DNA from: Elusimicrobiales bacterium
GTDB lineage: Bacteria > Elusimicrobiota > Elusimicrobia > Elusimicrobiales > UBA9959
Length of the DNA stretch: 23,955 nucleotides
NCBI GenBank assembly: GCA_049972095.1
Contig: JBMFKQ010000025.1
Span: forward strand, 1 to 23,955
Direction: 5' to 3'
In this document: positions 9,001 to 15,000 of the stretch, one piece after another
Layout: every line of letters starts with the position of its first letter
Position numbering within the stretch: position 1 is the stretch's first letter
Position numbers: made by a program

Positions 9001-12000
9001 GATCAGGGTAATGGCCCAGGAGCTAAAAACAATACTGAAAAACGATTATCTCATATTTGCAAGGAATAAAAAAGGAGAAGCGGTTGCTTTTTCACTTTTG
9101 CTTCCTGATTTTAATTATGCCCTTTCTGTTGTTAGGGGAAGAATAACACCATTAAATTTTCTGCCTTTTCTGTGGCGATATCTGTTTGGTATAAAGGGTG
9201 GAAGGATGCTTACACTTGGTGTTAATAGAGAATACAGAGGAAGGGGTATAGAGATTCTTATAATAATGAAGGCTATTGAGATAGTAAGGAAGCTTGGATG
9301 GGAATGGGCGGAGCTGTCATGGACTCTTGAGGATAATATAAAGATAAACAAGACAATAGAAAGATTTGGAGGCAGGCTTTATAAAAAATACAGAATATTT
9401 AGGAAGGATATATGATTTTTAAGGATTGTATTTGTCTGCAAAGAAAATGTTTAAAAGATAAGAAGTATCATTAAGAATCTTTTGAAAAATCTCAGATATA
9501 TCTGTTATTACAAAAAATTTAGATAAAAAACTGTAAAAAAAATTTAACAGAGGTCTGTTATAATCTTGTTTATGAAGATTGTTTCAGATCCTAAAAAGAG
9601 TGGTATAAAACCAGAAACAGGGACTTCACCTTCAATAAGAGGATTGTAGTGGATGAAAAAAATGATGATAGGAAGGAGGGCTTGATTGTGGAGGGAAAAC
9701 ACCTTGAATACGATGAGGTAGAGTTTGAGAGAAGCCTTCAGATATACTCTAATCTGCTTAAAAGCTTCTCAGAGTTTCTCAAATTGATCTCAGATGCATC
9801 TTATATACATGCCTTAGATACTGTAAGATATATGTCATCTCTGATCTATAATGAGATTTCTAATCCCTATTTCCCAATTTTTCTTAAATATCTTACTCCA
9901 AGAAACTATGTTATATCTCATTCAGTTAATCTTGCATATTTGAGTGGTTTGGTTTCATTATTTTGTTGTAAGCTTAGTGAAAGCGAGATAAAGAATAATA
10001 TAATATCGGCTCTCTGTGTTGATATAGCAATGCCCCTTTATAGAAATATATATGAGCAAGAAAAACAGCTAACATCATATGAAAGGGAGGTGATAAAATC
10101 TCATGTTAAAGAAGGGGCTGATATCTCAGAAAAGATATTTGCGTTTGAGCCGGATATCAGAGATTATGTTTATAATACGGTTATGAACTCCCATGAGAGA
10201 TGTGATGGAAGTGGATATTTTTCAAAGAAATGTGATGAGATACCACTTTCTTCCCTTATTATTGGGATGTGTGATTTTTATGAGGCTCTTTCAAAGCCAA
10301 GGGCTTGGCGAAGACGGTTTAGTGAGCCAGAGATTATAGATCTTTTGAGCACAAAATACAAAAATCTCTTTGCTCCTCAGCTATTTAAAGGGCTTGTTTC
10401 ATCCCTTGGAATTTATCCAGCTGGTTCGTTTGTTAGGCTTTCAACTGGAGAGATCGCGGAGATTATCTTTGCAAACAGGGATAAAATGCTAAAACCAACT
10501 GTAAAAGTTATTGCAGATCCATCTTTTCATATCGTTAAACCATATATTCTAAACCTTATGGATTATCCTCTTATATCAGTGGAGTCGTATATAAAATGGC
10601 AGGATATTGAATCAAATAATCATGAGCTTATGGCAAAAATTGAAATGGAAAGGTTATGGATAGATTGGTAAGGGTTTTAGTTATATCAGATGAGGAATAT
10701 GTCAGAGAAAGGGTTGGAGGAATACTTGATGAGCTTAAGCTTAATTATGATCTTGCTTGTAATGCAAAAATTGCAAAAGAGAAACTCCTTTCTCCCTATG
10801 ATATAGTTATCTCTGATGCCCTCATATGGGGGATGAGCGCTATTGAGGTTGTTGAGAGTGTGAAAAAGATAAGAAAGGATGTATGTATTATAGTGATGTG
10901 TGATCTATCAACGACGGATATTGGAGAAAGGTGCATAAAAAATGGTGCTTTTGCTTATGTTATAAAGCCACCAGACATAGAAAGGATAAAAAGCTATGTG
11001 GAGCTCTATCTCATTACAAAAAGCGCCTGAATCAACAGCTATTATATGTATTGAACCTGTGCTTAAAGAAAAGATAAAGGAATTAAGGAGGGTTCTTATT
11101 TGTGGGGAAAAGAGGCTTTATGAGAAGGTTTATGAGATGGCTGCTATTGAGCAGTCAATTAAAGGTTTCTATTCCGCTTTTTATGAAAAGCTTGGGGTTT
11201 ATGAGATATTACTCAGAAGACTTAAAAATAGATTTTGGGGCATAAAGGATGATGAAAAAAAAGAGGAGAAAAAAGTTTTTTATGTTGATGAGGGGATGCT
11301 AAAGAAGGTTTTTAGAAAGCTTGCAAAACTTTATCATCCAGACAGATACAAGAATATAACGGATGAGGAAAAGGCTTTTTTTGAGATGAGGATGTCAGAG
11401 GCAAATAAATATTTTGAAAAGAAAGATTTGAATGCCCTTCTATCCATGCTTGAGCAGGCAATGGCTGAGGTCTGTGATGATATGCCATCACATCAAAGAA
11501 TAAGGATACTTGAGCTTAGAATCTCTGCTGTTAAAGAGCTTAATGAAATATATCAGGCAAAGATTGATGAGTTAAAAAGGAATGATATATACATACTTAT
11601 GAGAATGAAGCCCGATGAGAGGGAAAAGGAGATAGCAAGAAAAAGAAGACTTCTTCTTTCTGAGATAGAAATATATTCAAAGCTTGTAAGAGCAAAGCTT
11701 TAAAAGTTGTAAAATATTTTTTTATGATTGTTAAGAAAAGCAAGGGATATAGGATTGCCTTTCTTGTTTCTTTTCTTTTTTCTATATACAGTTCTGCTAT
11801 ACTTTTTATGCATTTTCAGGCAAGATATGTAAATGGCTTTCTTTTAAATGATTTTAGAATAATTGCATCTTTAAGCTCTATTTGGGATGATAAAACTGTT
11901 TCTCAGATATCAGCTATAAGAGGGGTAAAGAATGTTAGGGTTGTTAAATCAGAGGAGCTGATGAAAAGGCTTGAGAGTGAAGATAAAGAGCTCTATTTTT

Positions 12001-15000
12001 CAATAAAATCTCTTTCCAAAAACCCTGTTCCAGATATTGTTGAGATAGAAGTTGATGATATGTATTTTGGTTATGCTGAAAACATAGTTAAAGAGCTATC
12101 TTTGGTTAATGGAGTTGAGGAGATAAGATATAGGCCGGATGAGCTTGTTGCCATAATGCATACAGAGTTTTACATGAGATTTCTGATGTTTGTTTTTTCA
12201 ATGAGTCTTTCAATTATCTTTCTTATGATCCTTTTCTCTGCTTTTCACAGTGGATTTAAGGGGTTTATCTCATCGGTTATTGAATCTTCAAAATGGTTTT
12301 TAAACGGGGTTGCTGCGGGAGCTATTGGAGTGATTTTTGTCTATATAATAGTTATACCTCTTAAAAACCTAAGTGTTTTATGGAGCTGGTTTGAATGGTA
12401 TTATACGCTATGTATAATTATGTGTAGTGGTTTTATAGGCTGGGTTTTCTTTCAATGGAAAAAAGACTGATAATATCCTTTAGCCTTATAACCATTTCTT
12501 TTTTGTCTCTTTGGGCACAGGATGGTAAGTATTCTGCTACTTACAAGAAACTTGAAGAGATAAAGAGACAGCTTAGTGAGAAAAGCAAGGAGTATGATGA
12601 TTATATGAAAAAATACAACGAGGCGCTTGAAACAATGAGGAAATTGAAGATTACTCAAGCTGACTATACCTTAAAAAAAAAGGAGTATGAAAACTTAATT
12701 GAGTCTATCAATAGAAAGATATTAGAAAACAGGCGTCAGTATGAGATGCTTATGAAACTTCAGAAAGAGATTTCTGATGATGCTGGTGTTGATTTTAGAA
12801 AACTATATCTTTCAAGATTTTCTACTTCATTTTTTTATGGTAGATACGATATAATAAAGGATATGATAATCAGAAATATGATAATTGAAAGAAAAAAAAT
12901 GGTTGATTCTATAAAAGGGAAAAAAAGAATTTTTATGGAAGGTATTATGAATCTTTCTAAAAAAAATGAGATTATAGCTAAAAGAAAGACTGAAACCGAA
13001 GTGGCAATTAAAAGAGGTTTTGAGATGATAAGGAAAAAGGAAAGAGATCTTCACATAACTGATGAGAAGCTTAAAAGAATTAGGGATGAAATTGATGAGC
13101 TTAATAGAACAGCTAAGGAGCTAACACAGTTGATAAAAGAGATAGAAAAGAGATCGCCTTATAAAAAGGATTATATTTCATCAATTAGTATTGAAAAAAA
13201 ATCTCTTCCCTGGCCATGTATAGGAAGTGTTGTCTCAAGGTTTGGTAAGGAGTATGTTGAAGAACTTAAAACCTGGATTGTAAATGATGGGATAAAGATA
13301 AAAACAAACTCAGTTTCTTCTGTGAGAGCTGTTATGAAGGGTAGGGTTGTATATAGCGGGAGGTTTAGAGGGTATGGGAATATTGTGATTGTAGAACATG
13401 ATGATGGAATTTTTACAACATATGGTTTTTTGAGTGAGGTTTATGTTAAATCTGGTGATGAGGTGAGTGATATTAGTGAGATTGGAAAAACTGGAAAGGA
13501 TGAAAGAGGCTTTGACACTGATAATAGCACGATTTTGTATTTTGAGATAAGAAAGGGTGATACACCTCTTGATCCACTTATTTATCTTAAATAGGTTGTA
13601 AGGAGATGCTATGAGAAAAAAAATAATCATAAGTCTTATAATAGCTGTTAGTGTTGGTATGATGCTTCCTTATGTGGATTATGCAATAGATTCAACCTAT
13701 CAGAAGATAAAGGTTTTTGTTGAGGCATTTGAGCTGATAAAAGATAACTATGTTGAGGAAAGGCGTGATGAGGATCTGATATATTCAGCAATAAGTGGTA
13801 TGGTTAGCTCCCTTGATGATTTCTCACAGTTTCTCAAACCATCGGCATATGAAAAACTCAAGGATGATACTGAGGGTGAGTTTGGTGGGATAGGTATAAG
13901 GATAGGAAGAAAGGAGGGTTGGCCTGTTGTGGTGACTCCTCTTCCTAATACACCTGCCTTTAAGGCAAGGATATATCCCGGCGACAGAATAATAAAGATT
14001 GAAGGGGAATCAACTGAAAATATGTCAGATGATGAGGTTGTGGATAAACTAAGAGGAAAACCAGGCACAAAGGTTAAGATAACGCTTGCCAGAGAGCCTA
14101 AAAAGAGTGATGAGGAATGGCAGATTTTTGATGTTGAGCTGACCAGAGCCGTAATCAAGGTTGAGGCTATTGCCTCAAGAATGCTGGATTTAGAAACAGG
14201 GCTTATCAGGATAATTGAGTTTTCTGCACATGCATATGAGGATTTTAAGAAGGCTATCAGTGATCTTGAGAAAAAAGGGATGAAAAGGCTTATAATTGAT
14301 CTCAGATACAATCCTGGGGGACTTCTCAACTCAAGCATTGATATAGCAAAGCTCTTTATTAGTGATGAAAAGATGATAGTTTATACAAAAGGAAGAACAA
14401 AAGATGATTACTTTGAATACAAGGCAGACAAGGATGCAAAATATCCTAATATACCATTAGTTGTTCTTGTAAACAGATACTCAGCCTCAGCAAGCGAGAT
14501 ACTTGCAGGTGCATTAAAGGATAATAAAAGAGCTGTAATTGTTGGGGAAAACACTTTTGGTAAAGCAAGTGTTCAAACCCTTCTTCAGCTTTCAGATGGC
14601 TGTGCTATTAGACTTACCGTTGCTAAATACTACACACCCTCTGGTCTTATGATACAGAGAGACTCAAAAACAGGAAAGGGTGGGATAAATCCTGATGTTG
14701 AGGTTAAACTTTCAAAAGATGAAGAGCTGAAAATATATGAAAATATGCAAGAGATATATTATCCTGACGAAAAGTTAAAACCAAAGAAATCACAAGAAGG
14801 GTTAAAGGATCCTGTTATAGAAAAGGCACTTGAGGTTTTTAAGATGATGGAGGTTTTAAAAAGGGTTGCTACATAGTTGTATGAGAATTCTGGCAATAGA
14901 AACGAGCTGTGATGAGACATCGGTTGCTGTTGTTGAAGGAAGAAGTATTGTTTATCACAAGATTTGTTCTCAGGTCCCTCATCATAAAAAATACAGTGGT

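Follow-up and report, generated by a model that had tools for sequence, protein, structure and literature searches.

An FtsX-EnvC pair without FtsE, and with an eroded FtsE-docking site, in Elusimicrobiota

In the accepted model of FtsEX function, wall cleavage is licensed by a switch, ATP binding by FtsE, and control of this switch is singled out as the pressing open question (PMC12505981). FtsE contacts FtsX through the coupling helix (PMC11627006; bioRxiv 2023.10.06.561269). In vitro, EnvC by itself can activate AmiB; the literature also contains a 29-nm ruler model. In Fusobacterium nucleatum, Wu et al. described in 2018 a linked ftsX-envC pair devoid of ftsE (PMC5915739). There, deletion of ftsX or envC yields filaments, the pair is needed for cell separation, EnvC co-purifies with FtsX, and so does an ABC ATPase, HMPREF0397_1681; its authors postulated an ATPase acting in trans, and, in the parts consulted, they do not remark on the loss of the coupling motif from Fusobacterium FtsX. 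In Caulobacter, ftsE can be deleted while ftsX cannot (PMC5607218). The staphylococcal system called FtsEX (PMC5187514) is unrelated.

Here we describe a locus in a window of 23,955 nucleotides, the whole stretch of Elusimicrobiales DNA that we analysed. The survey's finding, that a short ftsX sits directly ahead of envC and ctpA with no ftsE, is borne out by the ORFs (Table 1). The gap to the upstream J-domain gene leaves no room for ftsE, and ftsX and envC overlap by 16 nt at the ftsX stop. Likewise, none of 60 ftsX loci has an ABC ATPase within flanks of about 4 kb, and envC lies 3′ of ftsX in 59 of the 60, the contig ending in the remaining one. The conserved neighbour 3′ of envC is ctpA, found in most of these loci.

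Table 1. Features of the ftsX-envC-ctpA locus in the window
Feature	Position	Strand	Details
J-domain gene to ftsX, 20-nt gap (J-domain gene 10996-11703)	11704-11723	.	no ftsE remnant
ftsX	11724-12470	+	248 aa; PF18075 25.7 bits (cut-off 23.5); without PF02687
FtsX periplasmic domain, residues 44-137, including X-lobe (EnvC-binding part)	11853-12134	+	6tpi_C Z 11.9, rmsd 1.9, 91 aligned
FtsX TM2-TM3 cytoplasmic loop, shortened, residues 173-188; usual site of FtsE coupling helix	12240-12287	+	
envC, 379 aa, M23	12455-13594	+	signal peptide, long coiled coil, catalytically dead LytM domain
EnvC restraining-arm core, L216/L223/I227 (E. coli L229/L236/I240)	13100-13135	+	
ctpA, 421 aa, S41 C-terminal processing peptidase	13611-14876	+	TIGR00225 348.9 bits, over cut-off
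tsaD	14866-15867	+	PF00814

In the Elusimicrobiota genomes searched, none of three tests found a cognate FtsE, in line with what had been claimed for the phylum. No protein passed the TIGR02673 cut-off in 401 genomes (best 228.2 bits, best 7 candidates per genome). The top score in the window's genome, 190.6, was reproduced and belongs to a LolD whose gene comes immediately after that of a 399-aa LolC/E. The cut-off, which had served as the main test, is unsafe alone and we rejected it as sole proof of loss, because real FtsEs in the range 218-247 bits (246.9, 235 and 218.5) fall under it. Therefore, a tree and a calibrated FtsE profile were also used. The ABC ATPase tree was built after setting aside 25 of the 151 ATPases (14 references and 11 distant Elusimicrobiota); its FtsE clade (support 0.983) contains none of the 100 Elusimicrobiota ATPases. 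The profile gave 11 matches in 251 genomes; since scores of held-out FtsEs (223-280 bits) and MetN (218-252 bits) overlap, matches were sorted individually, and every one is MetN. The phylum scans scored the best 7 or 11 candidates per genome. The Q-loop motif was discarded as a sole marker of FtsE, as an Elusimicrobiota MacB fusion (L072) has it yet groups with MacB.

In FtsX, the periplasmic Porter domain with its X-lobe is present between TM1 and TM2 (PF18075 in 82/82 homologues at E 0.1, with fold matches in agreement). The window protein matches E. coli FtsX in a profile comparison (E 5e-27, with a 13-residue gap), and its AlphaFold2 model (pLDDT 94.6) matches 8ymc_C (Z 13.1, rmsd 5.5, 235 aligned); a single-sequence PDB search returned no FtsX among the matches. 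Four TM helices are found in 1+3 topology (model helices 8-43, 138-176, 189-215 and 225-247), and the chain stops right after TM4.

The FtsE-docking coupling helix, on the other hand, is lost in Elusimicrobiota FtsX, with only a remnant in the window protein, a 10-residue helix (178-187) in the model. The TM2-TM3 span is 70 residues in 24/24 canonical FtsX compared to a median of 54 in Elusimicrobiota (55 in the window), and the coupling-helix motif is found in 24/24 canonical but 1/111 short FtsX, so that a loss formerly judged by eye is now measured. The lone match among the 82 homologues (L119) falls within an insertion of low complexity that does not resemble the canonical loop. The X-lobe is the best conserved region (mean column identity 0.48) and the TM2-TM3 loop the least (0.17). 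PF02687 is weak in the homologues (5/82, best E 0.0024). The elbow helix is absent from the window protein: TM1 begins at residue 8, no in-frame start lies upstream, and a median of 6 residues precedes TM1 among the 82 homologues. As a marker, elbow-helix loss is weak, Bacteroidota N-termini being short too and 6/24 reference starts having been picked too late. FtsX counts omit L037 (broken frame), 8 duplicate loci, and two loci that are cut or contain N (L282, L283). Parts that ATP-driven mechanotransmission to the partner would need are missing here.

The closest solved relative of the window's EnvC is V. cholerae EnvC (residues 21-375, E 9e-17), and both the long antiparallel coiled coil and the LytM domain are found. 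Across 52 homologues, the LytM zinc ligands are gone (HxxxD 0/52, HxH-like 1/52), residues of the amidase-activation groove are kept (Y350 52/52, Y401 52/52, R405 49/52), and the restraining-arm core is hydrophobic at all three columns in 52/52. These data do not support an EnvC that is constitutively active after loss of the restraining arm. The hinge Gly is not among the common residues in these homologues. From I240 to the LytM Trp, the arm measures 22-39 residues compared to 60 in E. coli; the short arm is not diagnostic, because V. cholerae EnvC, with FtsE present, has 23 by an eye count. The EnvC model is one continuous, extended helix; as it deviates from solved EnvC by about 30 A (whole-chain rmsd), it does not fix the state. 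The EnvC counts omit 8 of 60 EnvC loci (L087, unlike EnvC; L089, L099, L100, L115, L116, L128 and L135, not parsed) and also L139, which has no envC.

A prediction of the FtsX2-EnvC complex scored 0.57 compared to 0.00 for the best control, although like complexes have been solved and likeness alone might give this score. The mark used was reached by 116/157 solved and 2/215 mismatched pairs; at 0.60 or under lie 18/157 solved pairs and both mismatches. Runs shared at least 71% of contacts, with partner pLDDT of at least 78. The model hints at FtsX-EnvC binding in Elusimicrobiota. One AmiA-like amidase per genome was found in 81/81 genomes (in the window's genome at G000:C20:13673-15163), with the regulatory (autoinhibitory) insertion in 30/30 inspected.

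FtsE is lost while ftsX-envC is retained, and therefore amidase activation would proceed without the FtsE cycle. This part of the survey's finding stands; its septal site is suggested by homology and Fusobacterium genetics. We judge it fairly probable that Elusimicrobiota FtsX is an ATP-independent anchor for EnvC, replacing the FtsEX ATP switch. An ancestral ftsE-ftsX-envC-ctpA operon would have lost ftsE, after which FtsX would have lost its FtsE-docking cytoplasmic surface. An FtsX dimer would hold the EnvC coiled-coil tip via the X-lobes, and the dead LytM domain would open an autoinhibited AmiA/B-type amidase, leading to cell separation. Position and geometry, in place of the ATP cycle, would then exert control: EnvC would alternate unaided between restrained and extended forms, amidase binding would trap the extended form, and EnvC's rod length would set the position of wall cutting. 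For Elusimicrobiota we infer the septal role, the EnvC-amidase pairing and the gating by geometry alike. The Fusobacterium and Caulobacter genetics and the in vitro activity of EnvC are precedents for the anchor, and it is also favoured by the coupling helix that Bacteroidota FtsX keeps alongside an unlinked ftsE and by the diverged amidase of family f9. The co-purification of HMPREF0397_1681, the helix remnant in the loop, a genome with envC-ctpA but no ftsX ORF (G003) and the small number of candidates scored per genome count against the anchor, as does the fully conserved restraining-arm core, with which EnvC may remain autoinhibited and depend on a driver.

Alternatively, FtsX may still be a mechanical transducer, driven via its TM helices or the remnant loop by a new non-ABC partner (for instance the divisome proteins FtsA, FtsK or FtsWI, or a proton-driven motor), which we regard as unlikely. 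Most homologues have kept TM3 and TM4, TM3 carries a conserved motif of small residues, and the restraining core of EnvC is intact. FtsX also requires some route to midcell, and both known ones (FtsE-FtsZ and FtsX N-terminus-FtsA) lack parts in Elusimicrobiota; homologues of FtsA, FtsZ, FtsW, FtsI, TolQ/R/B and Pal are encoded in the window's genome, while an FtsQ census was too insensitive for use (controls 5/14). Nevertheless, the cytoplasmic parts of FtsX are its least conserved (0.17-0.22) and vary in length, a few homologues end after TM3 or TM2 (L115, L116, L275, L278), and the families share no conserved upstream neighbour, judged by ORF length and by eye. Look-ups of ten proteins without names yielded no informative identities.

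The loss of both targeting routes could also mean that FtsX-EnvC has left division to take part in lateral wall turnover or to maintain the envelope, possibly together with the linked CtpA, while another activator splits septa. The window's genome does encode two further M23 proteins, but these keep HxxxD and HxH by eye and thus look like active peptidases, not activators. Linkage to ctpA is also found where FtsE is present, in a related small phylum, and the FtsE-less Fusobacterium pair is required for cell separation; we consider a role outside division improbable.

It is very improbable that LolD, a MacB-type ATPase or a highly divergent FtsE works with FtsX in trans, a caveat raised earlier and suggested by the ATPase co-purified in F. 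nucleatum, by the limited number of candidates scored per genome and by unlinked, sub-cut-off FtsEs in Bacteroidota: the docking motif is gone from 110/111 FtsX yet kept by the genome's own LolC/E (by eye), the FtsE clade holds no Elusimicrobiota ATPase, and of the 15 ABC ATPase ORFs in the window's genome, the 9 examined for context adjoin their own transport genes, 3 are permease-fused, 1 is UgpC-type over cut-off, and an adjacent 315/326-aa pair has far lower scores.

The pair had been thought kept across class Elusimicrobia. It is kept, and is not limited to the class: short FtsX occurs in 193/201 Elusimicrobiota genomes across the phylum, as a single match in all but one. PF18075 is unfit for such a census, missing family f16 wholly (0/89) where a custom profile finds 30/31. 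The reported fusion of FtsX and EnvC into one ORF was seen in 7/7 examined genomes of one family, and additionally in 1 genome of another. Family f9 has neither ftsX nor a full-length envC (2/2 tested), and among the amidases its own has diverged furthest (33-36% identity compared to 39-73% elsewhere). A related small phylum (four genomes, G406) has an ftsE-ftsX-envC-ctpA operon with tsaD downstream as in the window (order from L328, tsaD labelled by eye), its motif-degenerate FtsE adjoining an intact FtsX. An FtsX tree of 48 sequences over 163 columns does not distinguish one loss from several; f19/f22 and L272 cluster there with canonical FtsX at 68-70%.

Tentatively, and with somewhat less confidence than in the anchor itself, we suggest that a type VII ABC mechanotransducer became an ATP-free, passive scaffold on at least two occasions, in Elusimicrobiota and Fusobacteriota. 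The path would still be visible as ATPase motif loss beside intact FtsX (the G406 phylum), ftsE deletion, coupling-helix erosion, and shrinkage of FtsX towards a periplasmic anchor or EnvC fusion, with septal amidases gated by envelope geometry alone. If the passive-scaffold reading is true, FtsEX works at its core without the ATP cycle, which is a refinement. A phylum with FtsX, EnvC and an autoinhibited amidase, minus the ATPase and its docking site, is a natural experiment separating anchoring from mechanotransmission. For reconstitution and cryo-EM, EnvC with an FtsX of 245 residues offers a minimal system, and the idea is testable now because F. nucleatum has genetics.

The survey's finding that papers hold no such case was wrong, given the 2018 Fusobacterium report. 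New here are the phylum-wide loss of FtsE, the docking-site erosion (in Fusobacterium too), the FtsX-EnvC fusions and the related phylum with degenerate FtsE. The FtsEX-EnvC-AmiA/B systems of E. coli, P. aeruginosa and V. cholerae (type VII ABC; PDB 8ymc, 6tpi, 8i6o, 8tzl) share with Elusimicrobiota the four-TM FtsX, Porter domain and X-lobe, a coiled-coil EnvC whose LytM is dead and which has the activation groove and the restraining core, and the autoinhibited amidase. Unlike them, Elusimicrobiota lack FtsE, the coupling and elbow helices and the FtsA-binding N-terminus, and some families have FtsX and EnvC in one ORF. Fusobacterium likewise has ftsX-envC without ftsE and an FtsX without the coupling motif (by eye in the published Fig. 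S3, and in L364 and L366), so its ftsE is probably not hidden elsewhere in the genome; 41 Fusobacteriota genomes gave no FtsE-type match. Its FtsX is 308 aa long, with a loop that is longer when measured in the same way (66) and an acidic C-tail, and ppnK, not ctpA, lies 3′ of the pair. Bacteroidota FtsX also has no adjoining ftsE and a short N-terminus without a clear elbow helix, but its coupling helix is intact (3/3) and an unlinked FtsE is found in 2/3 genomes tested. Finally, the Caulobacter case is a laboratory mutant of a bacterium in which FtsE is naturally present, and like Elusimicrobiota it implies an FtsE-independent function of FtsX (PMC5607218).

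The survey's finding of a shortened FtsX directly before envC and ctpA, with no adjacent ftsE, is borne out by the ORF coordinates and by the gap of only 20 nt that separates ftsX from the J-domain gene upstream of it. The 20 open codons ahead of the ftsX ATG hold no start codon, and the named relatives are Elusimicrobiota proteins. Across 60 loci from many families, envC follows ftsX in 59, and no ABC ATPase is found beside ftsX within flanks of about 4 kb.

Features of the ftsX region in the window (contig positions)
Feature	Position	Length	Remarks
HD-domain, receiver-domain and J-domain genes	9649-11703		lead straight into ftsX; seen in own genome
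ftsX	11724-12470	248 aa
envC	12455-13594		after ftsX
ctpA	13611-14876		after envC; tsaD next downstream
Solute-binding-protein-like ORF, then GGDEF protein	15871-18466		ORF has no evident signal peptide
Clostripain (C11) domain protein	18540-21980	1146 aa	~700 residues outside assigned domains

The structural model of the window's FtsX (pLDDT 94.6, pTM 0.85) predicts TM1 from residue 8, the periplasmic domain, TM2, a 10-residue helix, TM3 and TM4, ending at residue 248. The best fold match of the model is FtsX (8ymc_C, Z 13.1, rmsd 5.5, 235 aligned), starting at chain residue 68, and its predicted periplasmic domain matches 6tpi_C (Z 11.9, rmsd 1.9). Excerpts of two papers place the E. coli FtsX elbow helix at residues 53-70 (PMC13716388) and the conserved FtsE contact in the coupling helix of the TM2-TM3 loop (PMC11627006). 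Loss of this helix, formerly judged by eye, is now supported by counts. Counted between the periplasmic domain's end and TM3, the span amounts to 70 residues in 24/24 canonical FtsX (E. coli, 19 Bacillota, one delta proteobacterium and three Bacteroidota, in which kin are not independent), compared to 46-60 (median 54) in 80 of the 82 Elusimicrobiota FtsX and 72 and 73 in the other two. The coupling motif [KRQ][LYF][VILM]GA is present in all 24 canonical FtsX versus 1/82. Of 29 further, more divergent FtsX, one has a span of 80 and the other 28 range over 39-58; none has the motif. Conservation across FtsX is lowest in the TM2-TM3 loop (0.17) and highest in the EnvC-binding X-lobe (0.48).

In the window's genome (96.5% complete), a six-frame PF00005 search produced 20 matches, which comprise 15 ABC ATPase ORFs, a single 927-aa ORF matched in four pieces, and one weak match. 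The ATPase closest to FtsE is LolD (190.6 bits with the FtsE model TIGR02673), placed behind its LolC/E gene; eight other ABC ATPases examined each lie beside their own transport genes. With seven candidates scored per genome, TIGR02673 exceeds its cut-off in 0/401 phylum genomes (controls 7/14). An FtsE adjoining an ftsX (218.5) and unlinked Bacteroidota FtsEs (246.9 and 235) also score under this cut-off, which is unsafe as an FtsE test. For this reason, we used two further tests, a tree and a custom profile. The tree holds 126 sequences: all candidates scored from 15 good genomes of 15 families, the 30 best TIGR02673-scan loci, three ATPases of the window's genome and 26 references. None of its 100 Elusimicrobiota sequences falls inside the FtsE clade (support 0.983), whose members are from E. 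coli, Bacillota, a delta proteobacterium and Bacteroidota. The profile was built from 12 diverse FtsEs (held-out members, 223-280 bits); at E 1e-64 or better (~217 bits) it matches in 11/251 genomes, with 11 candidates scored per genome. All 11 matches adjoin metI/metQ-like genes, as judged by eye, one being confirmed as MetN/MetI, and were rejected. FtsE was not found in the searched Elusimicrobiota genomes by any of the three tests, in agreement with its proposed absence through the phylum; an FtsE that has diverged further than those tested could remain.

In E. coli, ftsY shares an operon with ftsEX. SRP54 GTPases (Ffh, FtsY) were found in 0/61 phylum genomes searched, including the window's own (controls 14/14), and a joint loss of ftsY and ftsE is speculation. 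SRP homologues are described in few Elusimicrobia in the part of PMC7987157 consulted. The window's genome contains dcw genes, ftsA and ftsZ (C3:77330-87288 and C5:51563-53913); E. coli FtsQ, FtsB, MinC and MinE gave no match there in an insensitive search.

Pfam finds FtsX in 244 of 401 phylum genomes, and a custom profile of 82 sequences finds the short FtsX in 193 of the 201 genomes at least 92% complete. Family f16, from another class and with genomes down to ~1 Mb, is missed by Pfam and recovered by the custom profile in 30/31 genomes, with envC after ftsX in 8/8 loci read. The pair is therefore kept across class Elusimicrobia, as claimed, but the limit to that class was too narrow. Among the eight misses, G057 does carry ftsX, and two f9 genomes yielded neither ftsX nor full-length EnvC; in this family (G096, G128, G272, G285) the amidase is more diverged. 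A fourth of these misses (G003) has envC-ctpA and no ftsX ORF. Four FtsX homologues (L115, L116, L275, L278) stop after TM3 or TM2 (204-225 aa), still ahead of envC, which we read as further shrinkage towards a periplasmic anchor.

Fusion of FtsX and EnvC in a single ORF, attributed to one family, is present in 7/7 f6 genomes examined and also in one f14 genome. Fusion-length ORFs (578-647 aa) number 14 among the best 150 representatives. A hydrophobic, signal-peptide-like stretch ahead of EnvC, recognised by sequence features, is kept in 20/20 fusions scored (duplicates included), with an A-x-A site in 13. We infer that the fusion topology requires a fifth membrane segment and that the protein may be cut into two; fusion would therefore speak more for a tightly coupled pair than for a covalent tether.

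The window's EnvC aligns with V. cholerae EnvC along its length and is without zinc ligands. Among 52 homologues, the groove residues named in the consulted part of PMC10214136 are kept at Y350 (52/52), Y401 (52/52) and R405 (49/52); K321 and V324 are not. The restraining arm spans 222-278 in an excerpt of PMC7668044, with I240 as key residue (PMC12505981). Its core is hydrophobic in 52/52 EnvC and the remainder is short, likewise in V. cholerae. The EnvC model predicts one unbroken helix (109-212), which does not discriminate between the restrained and extended states. The genome's amidase matches E. coli AmiA (E 6e-31) with no gap over the regulatory helices; AmiA-type amidase is single copy in 81/81 genomes, and the regulatory insertion is kept in 30/30 loci read, the majority of which belong to the same order as the window. 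A second amidase (C30:13236-14990) has a shorter catalytic domain and, by eye, apparently no regulatory insertion. A predicted complex in which an FtsX pair meets the EnvC coil scores 0.57 versus 0.00 for the best control, lending weak support.

The feature is genuine, spans the phylum and makes structural sense, and the short FtsX is most likely an ATP-independent anchor for EnvC. A new non-ABC driver acting on FtsX is a rather unlikely alternative, and a non-septal role of the FtsX-EnvC pair is less probable still. An ATPase serving FtsX in trans is very improbable: Bacteroidota FtsX with ftsE elsewhere in the genome, the control for what such an ATPase would predict, keep the coupling loop, whereas Elusimicrobiota do not.

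A separate four-genome phylum (G406, G409-G411) carries ftsE-ftsX-envC, followed by ctpA in both contigs read, and is a possible intermediate. Its FtsX is canonical; with weak to moderate support, both FtsX and EnvC of this phylum are placed close to or within those of Elusimicrobiota. In 4/4 FtsEs, His replaces the first signature Gly (LSHGE) and the switch His is missing (ATNN), changes that would be expected to impair hydrolysis in an ABC ATPase. Beside an intact FtsX, these FtsEs (L273:3324-4001, L313-L315) are candidate pseudo-ATPases.

Our literature searches, with slight coverage of subscription papers, found nothing on FtsX/EnvC in Elusimicrobiota and no FtsX-EnvC fusion. That papers hold no case of ftsX-envC without ftsE proved incorrect, as one unexplained precedent, F. 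nucleatum, is described in the portions of PMC5915739 consulted. There, deletions at the locus lead to long filaments, and FtsX co-purifies with EnvC and an ABC ATPase that the authors postulate to be FtsE. In the alignment (Fig. S3), the coupling motif is, by eye, in the 13 other proteins and absent from the two fusobacterial ones. Two Fusobacterium loci (L364, L366) have a span of 66 and no motif; their FtsX carry an acidic C-tail. In 41 genomes of this phylum (71 candidates scored each), the FtsE profile gave MetN-type matches only (32 in 29 genomes, 30 of them inspected).

Excerpts of further studies describe a Caulobacter result in which ftsE is deletable and ftsX is not (PMC5607218), recruitment of FtsEX through FtsE-FtsZ and FtsX N-terminus-FtsA and partial activation without hydrolysis (PMC7343993), AmiB activation by EnvC on its own and a 29-nm ruler model (PMC10214136), and spatial control in V. 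cholerae (bioRxiv 2023.10.06.561269). The Elusimicrobiota pair does not qualify as FtsEX in the sense of an ABC complex; its probable mode of action is that of the periplasmic half of FtsEX-EnvC.
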